Below are positions 2,128 to 7,984 of a DNA stretch of 36,496 nucleotides, piece after piece. The notes under the pieces were generated by a model that did not search any database, was not told the DNA's origin, and saw nothing but the letters and a program-made list of their open reading frames with translations. The DNA is from Candidatus Krumholzibacteriota bacterium (GTDB taxonomy: Bacteria; Krumholzibacteriota; Krumholzibacteriia; LZORAL124-64-63), in assembly GCA_039714075.1 (NCBI GenBank), contig JBDLKA010000027.1, positions 1 to 36,496 of the forward strand, in the 5' to 3' direction. How positions within the stretch are numbered: the stretch's first letter is position 1; every line of letters starts with the position of its first letter. Both the position numbers and the translations under genes were made by a program.

Positions 2128-2266
2128 GGCCTTGGACATGTAGGCTCGTCTGGAAAGACGGCCATCACAAGGAAGGCCCCCGGTAATCCGCAGCGCTCTG
2201 GCGAGGACATCCGGGGGCCTTTCTTGTGATGGCCGTCTTTCCAGACGCCCCTACATATCCAGGGCC
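2128..2266. repeat. Long inverted repeat: 56-bp arms (2128-2183 and 2211-2266), 27-nt spacer
   Basis: Base-by-base comparison gives 51/56 complementary positions; the right arm includes the last codons and stop of secF. Confidence 0.95.
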
Positions 2267-3240
2267 ATCCGTTTTTTGTCCCTGATCCGCCGCTCATGCC
2301 ACCAGACCAGGATCGGGCTGGCGATGAACATCGAGCTGTACGTACCGACGATGACGCCGAAGCACAGCGCGAAGGCGAAGTCGTGAATCACCGGGCCGCC
2401 CAGGAAGTAAAGGGTCACCGCCACGAAAAAGGTCGTCAGCGAGGTCAGCATCGTACGGCTGAGGCACTCGTTGATGGAGCGGTTGATGACCTCGCGGTAG
2501 CTTTCCTTGCGCCGCAGTTTCATGTTCTCCCGGATACGGTCGAACACCACGATCGTATCGTTCAGCGAATAACCGATGATGGTCAAAAACGCCGCGATGA
2601 TCTGCAGGCTGATCTCGAAGTTCAGCAGCGAGAAGATGCCCAGGGTCAGGGTCACGTCGTGGACCAGGGCCATGATGGCAGCTATGCCGTAGCGGAAAAC
2701 GAAGCGCACGGTGATGTAGAGAACGATCAGGGCCAGCGCCGCCACCACGGAGTTGACCGCCGCGGTCCGCAGTTCGCCGCCGATCTTGGGGCCGACGCTT
2801 TCCTCGCGCCGCAGCTCGATCTCGGTGCCGCTCAGCCCGGCCCGCAGGTCCGCCAGCAGGATCTGGGCGGCATCAAGCGTCTTTTCCCCCGAAACGGTGG
2901 ACACGCCGGTGTTGCTGGCCTTCTCGTCGCCGGCCGCGGCCATCTCCATCACTTCCTCCGGGGTCGGGAACGTGATCAGGAATTCATCGACCGAGCCGAA
3001 TTCCGTCACCTGGACACCCTCGTAGCCCTGGCCTTCCAAAGCCGACCGGATCTCACCGACGGTCGGCACCGGCTCCATCTTCACCTGCAGGACGGACCCG
3101 CCGGTAAAGTCGATGCTCAGCCGCGGTCCCTTGTGGATCAGCATGGTGGCCGCGCTGACGACCACCAGGATCGCCGAAATGGTGAAGGCGACCTTCATGG
3201 CGCCCACGAAATTGATTTTGGGATTCTTGAAGAATTCCAT
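2251..3240 (-). CDS. secF: Protein translocase subunit SecF
   Basis: IDFTGGS, ESVGPKIG, LVHDV, IIGYSLNDTIVVFDRIRE, GTYSS motifs; follows secD; start set at ATG 3240 (MEFFKNPK). Confidence 0.97.
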   Translation of the reverse strand: MEFFKNPKINFVGAMKVAFTISAILVVVSAATMLIHKGPRLSIDFTGGSVLQVKMEPVPTVGEIRSALEGQGYEGVQVTEFGSVDEFLITFPTPEEVMEMAAAGDEKASNTGVSTVSGEKTLDAAQILLADLRAGLSGTEIELRREESVGPKIGGELRTAAVNSVVAALALIVLYITVRFVFRYGIAAIMALVHDVTLTLGIFSLLNFEISLQIIAAFLTIIGYSLNDTIVVFDRIRENMKLRRKESYREVINRSINECLSRTMLTSLTTFFVAVTLYFLGGPVIHDFAFALCFGVIVGTYSSMFIASPILVWWHERRIRDKKRMALDM

Positions 3241-3327
3241 CGTCTTGTCCGACCTTTCCCGGGCGGCGATCGCCCGGAGCAACGCCCCGCGAATCGGGGC
3301 TGATATTAAGCCGTCCCCCGGGACGGA

Positions 3328-5088
3328 CTAGATGCTCATCTTCTGCCGACCCTGCTTGCGGGTCACGAATTCCATGACGACGCGGGTCATCACCAGCGCG
3401 GTGAACATGCTCGTCAGGATACCGATGCTCAGGGTCACCGCGAAGCCCTTGATGGGCCCGGTGCCGAACCACAGCAGGATGCCGCCGGCGATCAGGGTGG
3501 TCACGTTGGCGTCGACGATGGTGCGGGTCGCGTTGGCGTAGCCCGACTGCACCGAGGCGCGGATGGTCTTGTCCTTGCGCAGCTCCTCGCGGATGCGCTC
3601 GTTGATCAGCACGTTGGCGTCCACCGCCATACCCACCGTCAGGATGATACCCGCGATACCCGGCAGCGTGAGCACCAGGTCGAACTGGGCCAGCACGGCC
3701 ATCAGGATGATGATGTTGCTGACCAGGGCCATGACGGTCACCAGGCCGCTCTGCCGGTAGTAGACCAGGATGAAGATGACCACCAGGATCGACCCGTAGA
3801 GGGCGGCGTTGACGCCCATGCGGATCGAATCGCTGCCCAGGCTCGGCCCCACCGTCCGCTCTTCGGCGATGTAGACGTCGGTGGGCAGGGCGCCGGCGCG
3901 CAGCAGCAGGGCCAGATCGCTGGCCTCGTTGTTGGTGAAGTTGCCGCTGATGGATCCGGAGCCGCTGGGGATCTTGCCCTGGATGACGGGTGCGGAGGAA
4001 ATCCGGCCGTCCAGCGAAATGGCCAGGAAGCGGCCCACGTTTTCACCGGTAACCTTGGCGAAGGTGCGCGAGCCCCGATTGTTCAGGGCGAAGTTGACCT
4101 GCCAGAAACCCGGACGGTCGGGGTTGGCGGTCGAAACCGCGTCGGTCAGCTGGTCACCCGTGATGACCTTCTGGGTGTCGATCAGATACAGGGGGCGCAA
4201 CATCTGGCCCTGCCCGAAGTCCATGGGCTCCATCTCCAGCTGGAACTCCACGTTGCGCAGCTTGCGCGCGGTGCGCGGATCGTCCAGCAGGACCTGCACG
4301 CGGGCCACGTTTCTTTCCTCGACGAAAAGAGGGGTGCTGCCCATGAGGCCCGGCTGGGCGATCAGCAGACCCGAGAAGGGATGTTCCTTGAGATAGGCTT
4401 CGTCGGCGCCGGCCAGGGAATCGTCGGTCCCCATGAGATCGTCCAGCTCGCCGAACGGACTGGCGGCGGTATCGGCTTCGGCAGCGGCGGTGTCGCCCTC
4501 CGCGGAAACGACTTCGACTTCAGCCGCGGGTTCTTCGGCTTCTTCAGTGGAGACGGTTTCCTCGGCGGTCTCCGTTTCCCCGGTCATATCGACGTCACCC
4601 AGGAAAAGCCGGTCCAGCTTGTCCAGGGCCGCCTGGATCTCGGTGTCGGGCCGCACCATGCGGAATTCCAACCGCGCGGTCTTGCCCAGCAGGTTCTTCG
4701 CCCTTTCGGGATCCTGCAGGCCGGGAAGCTTCACGACGATCCGGCTGGCGCCGAAGGTGGTGATCTCGGGCTCGGACACGCCGAACTTGTCGATCCGGTT
4801 GTAGAGGATCTCCTTGACCCGCAACAAGGCGTCCGCGGCCTCGCTGGAATTCATGCCTTCCTGATCGACCTCGAGGACCAGGTACATGCCGCCCTTGAGA
4901 TCCAGCCCGCGCCGGATGGCCGCGGCGTCGACATCGGCGATTTCCGCCAAGCGCTCCGGGTTGTCCTGGGCGGCTTCGCGCTCCGCCGGGGAAATGGACA
5001 AGGCCTTGAAGGTCGGCAGCAGCCCGTAAAGGGAAAACAGAAGGATGACGACTGTCAGCCCTGCCCTGATCTGCAGGGAACGGTTCAT
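3328..5088 (-). CDS. secD: Protein translocase subunit SecD
   Basis: GLDLKGG, RIDKFGVSEP, LRAGALP, ERTVGPSLG, LTLPGIAGIILTVGMAVDANVLINERIREE, DANVTT motifs. Confidence 0.98.
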   Translation of the reverse strand: MNRSLQIRAGLTVVILLFSLYGLLPTFKALSISPAEREAAQDNPERLAEIADVDAAAIRRGLDLKGGMYLVLEVDQEGMNSSEAADALLRVKEILYNRIDKFGVSEPEITTFGASRIVVKLPGLQDPERAKNLLGKTARLEFRMVRPDTEIQAALDKLDRLFLGDVDMTGETETAEETVSTEEAEEPAAEVEVVSAEGDTAAAEADTAASPFGELDDLMGTDDSLAGADEAYLKEHPFSGLLIAQPGLMGSTPLFVEERNVARVQVLLDDPRTARKLRNVEFQLEMEPMDFGQGQMLRPLYLIDTQKVITGDQLTDAVSTANPDRPGFWQVNFALNNRGSRTFAKVTGENVGRFLAISLDGRISSAPVIQGKIPSGSGSISGNFTNNEASDLALLLRAGALPTDVYIAEERTVGPSLGSDSIRMGVNAALYGSILVVIFILVYYRQSGLVTVMALVSNIIILMAVLAQFDLVLTLPGIAGIILTVGMAVDANVLINERIREELRKDKTIRASVQSGYANATRTIVDANVTTLIAGGILLWFGTGPIKGFAVTLSIGILTSMFTALVMTRVVMEFVTRKQGRQKMSI

Positions 5089-5126
5089 GGTTCAACTCCC
5101 CATTCTTCGACACGTGAACTCGACAG

Positions 5127-5180
5127 AAAAAAGCACGCCTTGACGACATCCGGGCGGGACTGACATCGCGTCAAGGCGCG
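5127..5180 (-). terminator. Intrinsic-terminator-like hairpin inside the secD leader
   Basis: Perfect 10-bp stem CGCCUUGACG/CGUCAAGGCG, extendable to 12 bp with a G-U pair, followed by C-UUUUUU, ending about 40 nt before the secD ATG; the 23-nt loop is atypically large. Confidence 0.55.
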
Positions 5181-5275
5181 TTGGAAGATCCTCTGGATAG
5201 TATTCCCGACGTACCCGGAAAGCGCCAAAGGCCGCGCAACCCGGATAGTACGTCCTGTCCCGCCGTGTTTTGAGG
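5127..5275 (-). ncRNA. Candidate structured cis-regulatory leader RNA (or sRNA) upstream of secD; no family recognised
   Basis: Upstream promoter motif, bulged hairpin 5208-5254, 8-bp long-range pairing 5257-5264/5153-5160, terminator-like hairpin with U6. Confidence 0.4.
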
Positions 5276-5280
5276 CGCCA

Positions 5281-5291
5281 ATGATAACACA
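5281..5291 (-). promoter_or_regulatory. Putative extended -10 sigma70 promoter for the secDF leader
   Basis: Minus strand TGTG-T-TATCAT (TRTGn plus -10 hexamer) in the 234-bp gap upstream of secD; -35 is poor. Confidence 0.5.
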
Positions 5292-5322
5292 TTCGCGGCC
5301 CTTGCACCAGAAAATGGCGGGT

Positions 5323-6435
5323 TCAAAACTCCACCAGACGGTAGTCCCGGCTGCCCAATCCCAATTCTTCCGCATGGTCCAGAAGGGCGGCGGGCTCCTG
5401 CTGGAAACCGCTCCAAACGGCCAGCGGCCCGTCACTTCGGGAAACGATCAAATCCCAGGTGGCCCGGTCCAGGGCCACCGGATCGGTCGCAGCCAGCACA
5501 CCGACATCCCCCAGCCGGGTCCGCCCACGCCCCTGGGCGCGCCCCGCATGTCTGTCCAGCCGGGCCAGAAGGTTGAAATAACCGAAGCGGGGGGATTTGT
5601 TTTTGCCCACCGCGGCTTTGGCCGCCACCGCCGCGGCGGCCACCTTTTTCTGGAAGCGGGGAATGCCCGCAGCCTCCTCGGGGCTTATTCCCGCCATGAA
5701 ACAGACGTTCATGCATTCCCCGCAACCGGTGCATTTCCGGTGATCGATCATCGCCCGGCCCGCCGTCAGGGAAATCGCGTCGAACAGGCAGACCGCCAGG
5801 CAGGAGCCGCAACCCGCGCACAAAGGTGTATCGACCTGGGGTCTGATATCCCGGTGCAGCAGCAGCTTGCCTTCACGGTCGGCCAGTCCCACTCCCTGGC
5901 TGATCAAGGCTCCCTGGAACCCCGCGTGGGGATGGGGCCGGACCGGAGTCAGCAGACACATCCCGGCGAAATTCCCCAGGGCCGCTGCCAGGGTCAGGCC
6001 GGCGAGATCCGCATCCTGCACGGGATCGGTAACCAGGGAATCGCCCTGGTCTGGCCCGTCGGCCACCAGATAACGCAATCCCCCGCGGCCGTCCCCGTAC
6101 CCCTTGGCCTTCGCCAGTTCCAAATGGGTGTCGGCCTGGTCCAGCCCGCTGGTGGTGATGGACAGGGTGTCGAAACAAACCGAACCCCTGGGCGGATCCG
6201 TGGCGCCGGGACCGGCCAGCGCCCGGGCCACGGCCAACGCCCAGGCAGGATCGACCGCCGGTGGATGGCCCCGTTCTCCCAGCTGAACCTTCAAGCCCCA
6301 GGGAGAGGTCTTCCGGGCGGCTCCGGCAAGACCCAGCCGGTCCACCATCCGGGCCAGACAGGGTCCGAGATCGAGGGGCAAAAGCTCCTGACCCGGTTTC
6401 TGTTCGAGGGATTGGAAATACACATCCGCAGCCAT
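5323..6435 (-). CDS. DUF362 domain protein with a 2x[4Fe-4S] ferredoxin insert (divergent)
   Basis: CAGCGSCLAVC and CTGCGECMNVC motifs; DUF362-like elements KVQLGE, ADG, GFQGAL, DVGVLAATDPVALD, HAEELGLG. Confidence 0.8.
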   Translation of the reverse strand: MAADVYFQSLEQKPGQELLPLDLGPCLARMVDRLGLAGAARKTSPWGLKVQLGERGHPPAVDPAWALAVARALAGPGATDPPRGSVCFDTLSITTSGLDQADTHLELAKAKGYGDGRGGLRYLVADGPDQGDSLVTDPVQDADLAGLTLAAALGNFAGMCLLTPVRPHPHAGFQGALISQGVGLADREGKLLLHRDIRPQVDTPLCAGCGSCLAVCLFDAISLTAGRAMIDHRKCTGCGECMNVCFMAGISPEEAAGIPRFQKKVAAAAVAAKAAVGKNKSPRFGYFNLLARLDRHAGRAQGRGRTRLGDVGVLAATDPVALDRATWDLIVSRSDGPLAVWSGFQQEPAALLDHAEELGLGSRDYRLVEF

Positions 6436-6442
6436 GGTATTC

Positions 6443-7984
6443 TCAGCTCCCCTCGTTCGCTTTTTGCGCCATGTCCCGCAGCGCCAGCATTTCCGATACG
6501 GTCACGAACCTGACCCCCTGGGCCTGGAGACGGGGAATCTCACGGGCAAGAACCGCAGCGGTCGCCCGGTGGGGATGCCCGATACCCAGGGCGAAACCGG
6601 CCGACCGCGCCGACTTGACCAGGACCTCGAGATTCGCCTTGATGGTGGCCTGGTTCTCGTTGTCGTAATCGAGGAAGATCCGATTTTTCGCCGTCGGCAA
6701 CCCCTCCTGCCGGGCCTCGGCGAAGGCCACTGATTTGGCGGAGGTCAAACTGTCGATGAACAGCAGGTCCCGGGCACGCAGGGCTTTCATCAGGGCCGTC
6801 ATGGTCGGGCGGTCGCTGGTGGCGGCGCTGCCCATGTGATTGTTCACCCCGGTGATCATCGGCAGGGCGGCCATGGCCTCGTCGATGTGTTTCCCGATGG
6901 CCTCTTCATCCATTCCCACCATGACCGCACGGGGGCCGGGATCCGTCTCGGGATAGCCCTGGGGTTCCATGGGCAGATGGAGCAGTATTTCCCTCCGCCT
7001 GGCGGAAAAGTTGCGCCGGCTGCGTCCGACGCCGACTTCCACGATACAACCCCGCTCCAATCTCAATTTCCGGCCCGACTCCGGCTGGTCCCCGGTCAGG
7101 GAATCGTCCCCGCTCCGGTCCCCCGGCAATACCAGGTCGGTCGCCTTCAGGGCGAAGTGGCGGGAATAGGGCAGATGCGGCAGGACGGCCATGGTGACAG
7201 GCGCCGGCAAAGCCAGAATGGTCCGGGCGGCTTCACTCTTGCTGTAGCCCCAGTCATCGATCAGCAGGGCCACGACGGGGCCTTCCTGCGCCGCGAACCG
7301 GGACCACGCGCCGGTGCCGGCTCCGTTGCCCCACCGCACCGTGGGACTGCCGCCGGCCCGGTGCAGGACCAGGGTATGGGTCGGCCGTCCCGGAACGCCG
7401 ACATCCAGCCGCAGCAGGTCTTTCAACTCGTTGGGCCGGACCTGATCTTCGGGCAGACGGCCGCCGGGCAGAAGGCGTTCCGCCCACAGGACGCGGGCGC
7501 CGCGGGACTCCACGGCGGCAGCCACCTGGACCTGCAGATCCCACCACGCGATATCGTCCGGGACCGCGACCACGCGGCAGCGCACCGCGGCCTCGGGCCC
7601 GAACCGCGGCGCCGGCCAGTCATGGTCGCCCCCCCGGTCCGAGGCCGCTTCGCCGGCCGGGCCCACCGGACCGGGTCGGAAATTGGGCAAAGCCCCGGCC
7701 AGGGCCGACTCCACCGTGGTCTGGACATCGGCATACATCTTGTCCGAACCCAGGGAAAGCAGGGCGGCCTGGCCCGAACCGGACCGGGACCACTTGAGCA
7801 ACCCGATGCCCACCACGACCACCACCACCGCGGCGCCGACCAGCCAGGGCGCCACGCTCCCTGCTGGGGAGGACTTGGACCGGGACCGCCGGCCTGCGGT
7901 CTTGCCGCGGGTCTTGCGCGGGGATTTCCCCCCTGATTTGCGACGGCGGCGGGAATTGGCGAAGGCTCGGCTGAACAGGTTCAA
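6443..7984 (-). CDS. Divergent polysaccharide deacetylase (YibQ/DUF610 family) with N-terminal membrane anchor
   Basis: IDDWG, LLHLPMEP, VNNHMGS, FIDS, IFLD, IGHP motifs; basic N-terminus plus one TM helix. The ORF-track start (8161) crosses a terminator, so TTG at 7984 is proposed (start uncertain). Confidence 0.85.
   Translation of the reverse strand: MNLFSRAFANSRRRRKSGGKSPRKTRGKTAGRRSRSKSSPAGSVAPWLVGAAVVVVVVGIGLLKWSRSGSGQAALLSLGSDKMYADVQTTVESALAGALPNFRPGPVGPAGEAASDRGGDHDWPAPRFGPEAAVRCRVVAVPDDIAWWDLQVQVAAAVESRGARVLWAERLLPGGRLPEDQVRPNELKDLLRLDVGVPGRPTHTLVLHRAGGSPTVRWGNGAGTGAWSRFAAQEGPVVALLIDDWGYSKSEAARTILALPAPVTMAVLPHLPYSRHFALKATDLVLPGDRSGDDSLTGDQPESGRKLRLERGCIVEVGVGRSRRNFSARRREILLHLPMEPQGYPETDPGPRAVMVGMDEEAIGKHIDEAMAALPMITGVNNHMGSAATSDRPTMTALMKALRARDLLFIDSLTSAKSVAFAEARQEGLPTAKNRIFLDYDNENQATIKANLEVLVKSARSAGFALGIGHPHRATAAVLAREIPRLQAQGVRFVTVSEMLALRDMAQKANEGS

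Follow-up and report, generated by a model that had tools for sequence, protein, structure and literature searches.

The window, which is the whole stretch of 36,496 nucleotides analyzed here, carries secD and secF on its minus strand, preceded by a gene for a DUF362 protein with 4Fe-4S motifs, beyond which lies a divergent polysaccharide deacetylase gene. The segment 5317-5127 (minus strand), between the DUF362 gene and secD, is interpreted with moderate confidence as the promoter and the structured 5′ leader of the secDF mRNA, and its parts are collected in Table 1. Plus-strand ORFs across this region overlap the secDF and DUF362 genes and were judged not credible.

Table 1. Features of the secD leader and of its neighboring genes in the window.
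Feature	Coordinates	Strand	Basis or remark
DUF362 protein gene with 4Fe-4S motifs	5323-6435	-	upstream neighbor of the leader; stop codon at 5323
Upstream promoter element (about -45 to -30)	5303-5317	-	identical or one mismatch in 6/6 aligned genus members; core in most family members
TGn-extended -10	5281-5291	-	kept in 6/6 genus members, with a single change in one
5′ G-rich box (G-box), 5′ strand of the long-range helix P1	5257-5266 (8-nt core 5264-5257)	-	position after the -10 and covariation with the loop box
Bulged hairpin 1	5208-5254	-	in minimum-free-energy and centroid folds
Small hairpin 2 (4-bp stem, 3-nt loop)	5188-5198	-	read from sequence and genus alignment
Pyrimidine-rich linker after small hairpin 2	5187-5181	-	sequence
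Terminator 5′ arm	5169-5180	-	sequence and fold; stem sequence almost invariant across the family
Terminator loop (23 nt)	5146-5168	-	holds the C-rich box
C-rich loop box, 3′ strand of P1	5160-5153	-	exact complement of the G-box core 5264-5257
Terminator 3′ arm	5145-5134	-	followed by one C and the U6 tract 5132-5127
Spacer from terminator to secD (38 nt)	5089-5126	-	Shine-Dalgarno at 5101-5096
secD (586 aa)	3328-5088	-	Pfam SecDF_P1_head 7.6e-33, SecD_1st 7.1e-24, SecD_SecF_C 1.3e-19
secF (343 aa)	2251-3282	-	Pfam SecD_SecF_C 4.6e-69, Sec_GG 2.9e-07

The features listed by the original prediction, which are the extended -10, the G-box, the bulged hairpin, the terminator, the loop box, a repeated 8-mer and the ribosome-binding site, are all found where it had placed them. 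The terminator stem is also at its place, but it has 12 bp, two pairs more than had been written; it is G+C-rich and followed, after one C, by the U tract, which is the make-up of an intrinsic terminator. Transcription is predicted to start at about 5275-5272 (minus strand), around 7 nt past the extended -10. The 15-nt upstream element is without a good -35 consensus; its core recurs across the family and it may be an activator site. The exact copies of the repeated 8-mer are at 5250-5243 and 5202-5195 (minus strand). Downstream of the leader, codons 4-9 of secD (5064-5078, minus strand) are by eye almost invariant in nucleotides across the family, including synonymous sites and a rare arginine codon. 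This stretch can fold as a 5-bp hairpin, whose 5′ arm could alternatively pair with the Shine-Dalgarno sequence (5096-5101), and it may be a translation-level element.

No feature of the leader exceeds chance in the window sequence alone. The fold of 187 nt has a z of -1.25, with 17 of 200 shuffled sequences folding at least as well, the best duplex between lead and loop has a z of -0.96 against 300 shuffled loops, and about 0.27 repeated 8-mers would be expected by chance in ~190 nt by our own arithmetic. A consensus promoter scan over positions 3000-7000 returned no promoter-like site, and the leader terminator is absent from the consensus scan because the scan takes only terminator loops of 3-8 nt, so that a terminator with a 23-nt loop is outside its reach. 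Complementarity and fold within chance agree with the element being a mere terminator of the upstream DUF362 gene, whose complementarity to the 5′ box is accidental. This explanation is hardly credible beside the relatives, in which the terminator is separated from the DUF362 stop codon (5323) by a conserved promoter, the element follows secD under different or divergent upstream genes, and the pairing covaries. The comparative evidence, and not the single sequence, carries the finding: promoter, both boxes and terminator are conserved across genomes, and the pairing of the boxes covaries.

Conservation and distribution of the leader

Of 41 related genomes searched at the DNA level, six contain the stretch: the window's own, five of the seven other genomes of the genus and none of the 33 outside it. 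Of the two non-matches in the genus, one (G003) is due to the assembly breaking off 43 nt ahead of secD. The 450 nt upstream of secD were taken from 57 of 61 family genomes, those in which the first 150 SecD residues were found, and in these regions the leader plan is not limited to the genus. Most genera share a promoter, an A/U-rich spacer between promoter and G-box, the G-box itself, a short pyrimidine-rich linker and a terminator with a near-invariant stem and a U5-U9 tract. The terminator loop, of 20-44 nt across genera, carries the complement of the G-box of the same genome, and the minimal forms of the leader have ~90 nt.

The covariance model R1, whose input was 14 minimal forms, whose only structure is the terminator and whose best-conserved part is the terminator 3′ arm with its U tract (5127-5145), matches 34 of 91 genomes and 14 of 28 genera in the order of the window, which holds a single family, with one match per genome. 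The window's own genome has one copy and a reverse-strand echo at E = 0.1. In 151 genomes sampled from the class, R1 matched 15 family members, the window's own included, and gave two weak matches in other families (G123 and G180), which were rejected as plain terminators not near secD. An exact-pattern scan of one genome per species over 185,579 species returned 43 loci, which by reading are 19 leaders before secD and 24 unrelated sites; 10 of the 19 are labelled Candidatus Krumholzibacteriia or Krumholzibacteriota, and the others have unspecific or other labels. In these searches the leader is restricted to one family of an uncultured phylum, the lineage being taken as Krumholzibacteriota.

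The promoter is near-invariant in the genus alignment, and other genera often have full consensus promoters (-35, 17 nt, -10) at the same place. The aligned relatives agree with the original prediction that secDF is preceded by a promoter of its own, which is conserved, and by an intrinsic terminator. The G-box lies 8-16 nt (mostly 13-14) past the -10 hexamer in 30 of 32 leaders. Other DNA-level readings of the region were tried and rejected. A sigma-54 promoter has no conserved -12 element in the genus alignment, an inverted repeat as DNA operator has half-sites whose spacing varies from 22 to 44 nt, and a secD promoter starting from a -35-like hexamer in the terminator 5′ arm has no suitably spaced -10 in any of the three genomes inspected.

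All 34 R1 matches of the order are directly upstream of secD and on its strand, one per genome, as seen by comparing coordinates and reading the downstream sequence. The leader stays with secD while its upstream neighbor varies, being the DUF362 Fe-S gene in the window, a deacetylase gene in three genomes (G002, G042 and G018) and a divergent 261-aa ORF in another (G016). The spacer to the secD ATG has 38 nt in the window, and in the other family members for which it was measured it ranges from 33 to 141 nt. A small RNA that stands alone, ~150 nt long in the window and 60-180 nt in relatives, with a function unrelated to secD and a position kept by synteny, would go well with the consensus-like promoter, the strong terminator (12-13 bp, U6-U9), the compact fold in which the 5′ end is paired to the 3′ hairpin and the single copy per genome. 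Such an independent RNA of ~150 nt, which had been proposed beside the switch, keeps these points in its favor but is unlikely, since its position and strand are fixed and secD is close by. The element is always on the secD strand at 33-141 nt before the ATG, in 34 of 34 model matches and in the simpler forms, and the 38-nt spacer is too short for a promoter and a 5′ UTR, so that secD is left without room for its own promoter. There is also no conserved single-stranded seed, the loop flanks vary, and the housekeeping 6S and SRP RNAs are found elsewhere in the genome.

A divergent 6S (RF00013) or SRP RNA (RF00169) was rejected as an identity of the leader, since both families score above their cut-off elsewhere in the genome and neither does in the window, and the SRP RNA is unlike the leader by eye. 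The 6S RNA is at C1:136475-136651 of the window's own genome. Two SRP RNA matches of equal score (C119:10108-10205 and C144:7238-7335) are each at a contig end and probably represent a single gene that the assembly has split or duplicated.

Minimal, extended and un-knotted forms of the leader

In the window's genus, two additional hairpins are inserted in the linker. Bulged hairpin 1 varies in length and sequence among five genus members and is absent from the minimal forms of other genera; it is a genus-specific insert, and its place in the core, to which the original prediction had assigned it, is not supported. Small hairpin 2 is kept in three of the five genus members with a full-length leader, and the other two have a different small hairpin. 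The repeated 8-mer, to which a meaning had been given, is exact only in the window's genome and is not conserved in the genus alignment. One member of the genus (G007) has the same promoter with only a short hairpin and U6 in place of the knotted leader. The spacers between terminator and secD of G001, G002 and G003 have two to four tandem or near-tandem copies of 7-11 nt units, which differ between the species of the genus; the spacer of the window, with its 38 nt, is the shortest.

An un-knotted form occurs elsewhere in the family (genera g14, g30 and others): after the same promoter, the G-box forms a nested hairpin with a C-box close by, and a distinct small terminator, with a conserved base and U7-U9, comes after it, mostly 50-70 nt before secD. 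With a nested hairpin and a separate terminator, P1 cannot act by crossing in these genera. Five family genomes (G056, G017, G069, G041 and G071) have no run of at least six T before secD. Beyond this family, a dedicated promoter and a long 5′ UTR likewise precede secD in 20 genomes from six further families of the phylum. In one of these families (L146, L147 and L148), a consensus promoter is immediately followed by the secD 5′ UTR, which begins with a G-rich/C-rich hairpin and then a U run, and this may be the ancestral form of the leader. The constant theme is an own promoter, a paired 5′ G-box and a terminator-like hairpin before secD, of which the knotted form is one elaboration.

The G-box itself takes several arrangements. 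In the leaders of genus g36 (L019, L021, L082 and L091) there are two G-rich boxes, of which the 5′ one folds locally and the terminator-proximal one is the exact partner of the loop box, and in G047 the first G-rich box could pair with the loop as well. The G-box of G011 is inside the loop of a 5′ hairpin, which gives a loop-to-loop geometry.

Covariation of the helix P1

Pairing between the G-box and the loop box was evaluated in two alignments. The first (A1) is an unfitted MAFFT alignment of 14 genomes, in which 75.9% of the P1 cells are paired and both sides change in six of eight pairs. The terminator has 90.1% of paired cells in the same alignment, with changes on both sides in three of 13 pairs. 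For the whole structure, 84.7% of cells are paired in A1, versus 37-55% when the partners are slid by one to three columns, and none of 500 shuffles reached the covariation score. Two crossing helices, each with comparative support, are thus present in A1, which is the arrangement of an H-type pseudoknot.

The second alignment (A2) is model-based and was fitted to the terminator and not to P1; its 38 rows include four reverse-strand echoes and six rows in which the G-box is outside the span. In A2, 68.9% of P1 cells are paired, with changes on both sides in eight of nine pairs, and the whole structure has 82.3% of paired cells versus 34-58% when slid. When the 10 echo and out-of-span rows are dropped, P1 in the remaining 28 rows is paired in 71.5% of cells in register versus 69.8% at a slide of +3, column counts that are not clean because G-runs find C-run partners in several registers and the alignment of several rows is off by two to three columns.

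The two boxes change together in the genus alignment, where the seventh pair goes from A-U to G-C and the third from C-G to U-G, and a series from C-G through U-G to U-A is found in box pairs of the relatives. Energies of pairing within and between genomes were also compared. For windows taken by position only (bases 9-30 past the -10, 27 unique), the mean energy of a lead with its own loop is -19.70 versus -17.06 ± 0.58 kcal/mol for permuted partners, and none of 20000 permutations is as low as the self mean, a figure that overstates independence, the genomes being related. For typed 16-nt windows, self pairing is on average 3.7 kcal/mol better than cross-genome pairing and beats the cross mean in 26 of 30 genomes; none of 20000 permutations over the 19 window types is as low, and here the relatedness of the genomes applies equally and four of the windows were chosen knowing the pairing. 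The duplex of the whole lead is only 1.5 kcal/mol better with its own loop than with those of other genomes, which is unconvincing. In the permutation tests, P1 pairing does not stand out in genus g10 (G016, G055 and G068) nor in G042, G045 and G006.

Taken at the level of the group, the comparisons indicate that the P1 helix is real in most of it. The 8-bp long-range helix to the terminator loop that was first seen in the window is conserved with compensatory changes.

Conservation is distributed unevenly along the leader. In A1 the linkers and the flanks of the loop are variable and the invariant columns are those of the terminator arms and the U tract, to which near-invariant positions of the G-box and of the loop box are added. 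With linkers and loop flanks so poorly conserved where they are unpaired, a small-molecule pocket would be less likely. The seven to eight pairs in the middle of the terminator stem (pairs 39-46/157-165) are near-invariant in the 38 rows of A2, while its top pairs and P1 covary, and this middle part could be a protein site.

Folding order and candidate mechanism of secDF attenuation

When the transcripts are cut just before the terminator 3′ arm, the minimum-free-energy fold has at least five lead-to-loop pairs in 29 of 32, so P1 is predicted to form before the 3′ arm is made, as had been supposed. With the 3′ arm added and nested folding, eight of the 32 transcripts, that of the window included, retain P1 and lose the terminator, which returns in the window fold when more 3′ sequence is added. 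P1 is stable by itself, with -15 to -27 kcal/mol and no ligand. Crude constrained folds place the P1 and the terminator states within a few kcal/mol of each other, with a median of 4.4 kcal/mol in favor of P1; the folding is nested-only, and such energies cannot tell the coexistence of P1 and terminator from their exclusion. The linkers flanking the loop box in the window have 8 and 7 nt, which, by the usual loop-length rules, would make full coexistence of P1 and terminator tight or borderline.

These data are consistent with a cis-acting attenuator leader of secDF, in which P1 forms first and interferes with the completion of the terminator, a reading to which we give about an even chance of being right. 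The G-rich box would be near the 5′ end of the RNA, whose start is placed ~7 nt past the extended -10, and would pair with the C-rich box once the terminator loop is made, forming P1, which would cross the terminator stem as a pseudoknot. The terminator 3′ arm would emerge only after P1 forms. With P1 in place, the terminator 5′ arm would be within a closed loop and the 8- and 7-nt linkers would have to span a rigid helix of 8-11 bp; because the linkers are short and P1 is rigid, P1 and the full zipping of the 12-bp terminator stem would hinder each other. The balance between P1 and terminator would set the fraction of polymerases that read into secD, 38 nt downstream. Promoter activity, the folding order and, above all, the regulation of this balance are what we infer.

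The leader may go further and be a true RNA switch of secDF, in which a signal is read by the invariant terminator stem and turned into read-through by the covarying pseudoknot; we put this forward tentatively. Temperature, ions (such as one tied to the gradient behind SecDF activity), a protein binding the invariant stem or a small molecule are candidate signals.

A leader that does not switch is possible as well, though we would not expect it. In such a constitutive leader, the terminator would bleed off most transcripts of a strong promoter, keeping the output of SecDF low, and P1 would protect the 5′ end or fix the efficiency of termination. The stability of P1 by itself and the lack of conserved unpaired nucleotides among those seen are compatible with it, and so is the bare hairpin of G007; the G-box also has its partner in the terminator loop or in a local hairpin depending on the genus, which fits a 5′ end that merely needs pairing. 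However, this explanation does not account for a mid-stem that is near-invariant over 14 genera while P1 covaries freely, nor for the complement being inside the terminator loop in so many genera, and a weak promoter would be a cheaper route to the same end.

The case for a classical metabolite or ion riboswitch, whose aptamer would be the pseudoknot, is poor and we consider it quite improbable. A pseudoknot and a terminator are indeed together within a 5′ leader, near-invariant nucleotides of the stem might line a pocket, and an ion signal is conceivable, given that SecDF is driven by an ion gradient. Against it, the element precedes a single gene family in one bacterial family, neither the length nor the sequence of its junctions and loops is constant, the knot is missing in sister genera, and there is no Rfam match. 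At the gathering threshold of Rfam 15, neither the window nor the loci of nine relatives gave a match, and in E-value mode positions 4950-5450 gave only three matches to unrelated families, of which a snoRNA model has E = 0.036 and two are worse, all taken as chance. The Rfam check agrees with the earlier statement that no SAM, lysine, T-box, c-di-nucleotide, cobalamin, FMN or TPP consensus is recognized. The idea of a ligand-binding switch that accompanied it loses ground, since the unpaired stretches are poorly conserved and P1 is strong alone.

An arrest peptide encoded upstream of secD was also considered and rejected. Those minus-strand ORFs that run over the leader begin at 5435, 5416 or 5307, in each case before the predicted transcription start. 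The AUG atop the terminator 5′ arm is without a ribosome-binding site, and the reading frames, judged by eye, are not the same from genome to genome; insert lengths are offset by non-multiples of three, and indels break any frame. The original view that an RNA element and not an arrest peptide precedes secDF is therefore maintained, there being no fitting ORF and the conserved features being RNA helices.

Other pairings and motifs in the leader were inspected too. A swap of strands, in which the G-box pairs with the 5′ arm and the loop box with the 3′ arm, has only 4 bp and is lost wherever the G-box differs (by eye). The loop box as an anti-Shine-Dalgarno or as a partner of the secD coding start was rejected because by eye it tracks the G-box instead, and a K-turn at the top of the stem was rejected because there are no tandem G·A pairs. 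Base triples between the pyrimidine-rich linker and the purine run of the 3′ arm have a trend in their favor, with an inconsistent base order.

Relation to known leaders and significance

To our knowledge, control of secDF is known only via translation-arrest peptides. VemP, ApdA and ApdP are translated upstream ORFs that act as arrest-peptide monitors of secDF. Like them, the leader described here would be a dedicated control element directly upstream of secDF, but unlike them it has no ORF with a ribosome-binding site starting inside the predicted transcript. With terminator attenuators and 5′-UTR-derived small RNAs, the leader shares a promoter-proximal intrinsic terminator, and its early-ended transcript would accumulate as a small RNA. 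It differs from terminator attenuators in having neither a leader peptide nor an antiterminator that shares a strand with the terminator; its competing helix crosses the terminator.

The preQ1-I, fluoride and ZTP riboswitches act at the transcription level. As in these, an early long-range helix in the 5′ leader would decide the fate of a downstream terminator, whereas theirs are conserved pockets with a wide spread and the secD leader is found in one family, with variable junctions and no Rfam match. These riboswitches are described as using the formation of a pseudoknot or kissing loop on ligand binding (PMC11611296).

The guanidine-IV riboswitch (mepA motif) is the closest documented design, of which the secD leader is not a member. 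According to the same source, an upstream element pairs with the terminator-hairpin loop, which impedes the completion of the terminator and leads to read-through, the tertiary pairing and the full terminator stem compete sterically, and a short co-transcriptional window decides between them (PMC11611296). The secD leader also pairs an upstream element with the terminator loop, which is an analogy of design and not homology, and the loop-to-loop geometry of the G011 leader is a further likeness. On the other hand, the Rfam model of guanidine-IV has no match in the window or in the loci of nine relatives. The pairing of the secD leader has 8-11 bp and covaries, whereas that of guanidine-IV consists of a few invariant nucleotides that contact the ligand. 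The 5′ partner in the secD leader is mostly a single strand at the extreme 5′ end, which gives a pseudoknot and not a kissing loop, and the genes downstream are secD and secF and not a guanidine exporter, with no ligand indicated.

Among the matches listed for a literature search on secDF and riboswitch, the text available mentions no such element, and the matches listed for the name of the phylum, in the text available, include no study of non-coding RNA. The secD leader is best described as a new leader RNA family of a known general kind, supported by covariation, whose function we infer. It adds an uncatalogued RNA family to a candidate phylum and is a natural case in which the terminator loop is engaged by a long covarying helix, where a short kissing loop that depends on a ligand is used elsewhere. 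The un-knotted versions in sister genera make it a good system for the effect of terminator-loop pairing on termination. A true switch would be the first known case of secDF control by RNA, a task for which other bacteria use arrest peptides. A conserved RNA device before secDF would be a second, independent solution beside those peptides, and the leader would offer a handle on the tuning of protein export in an uncultured phylum.
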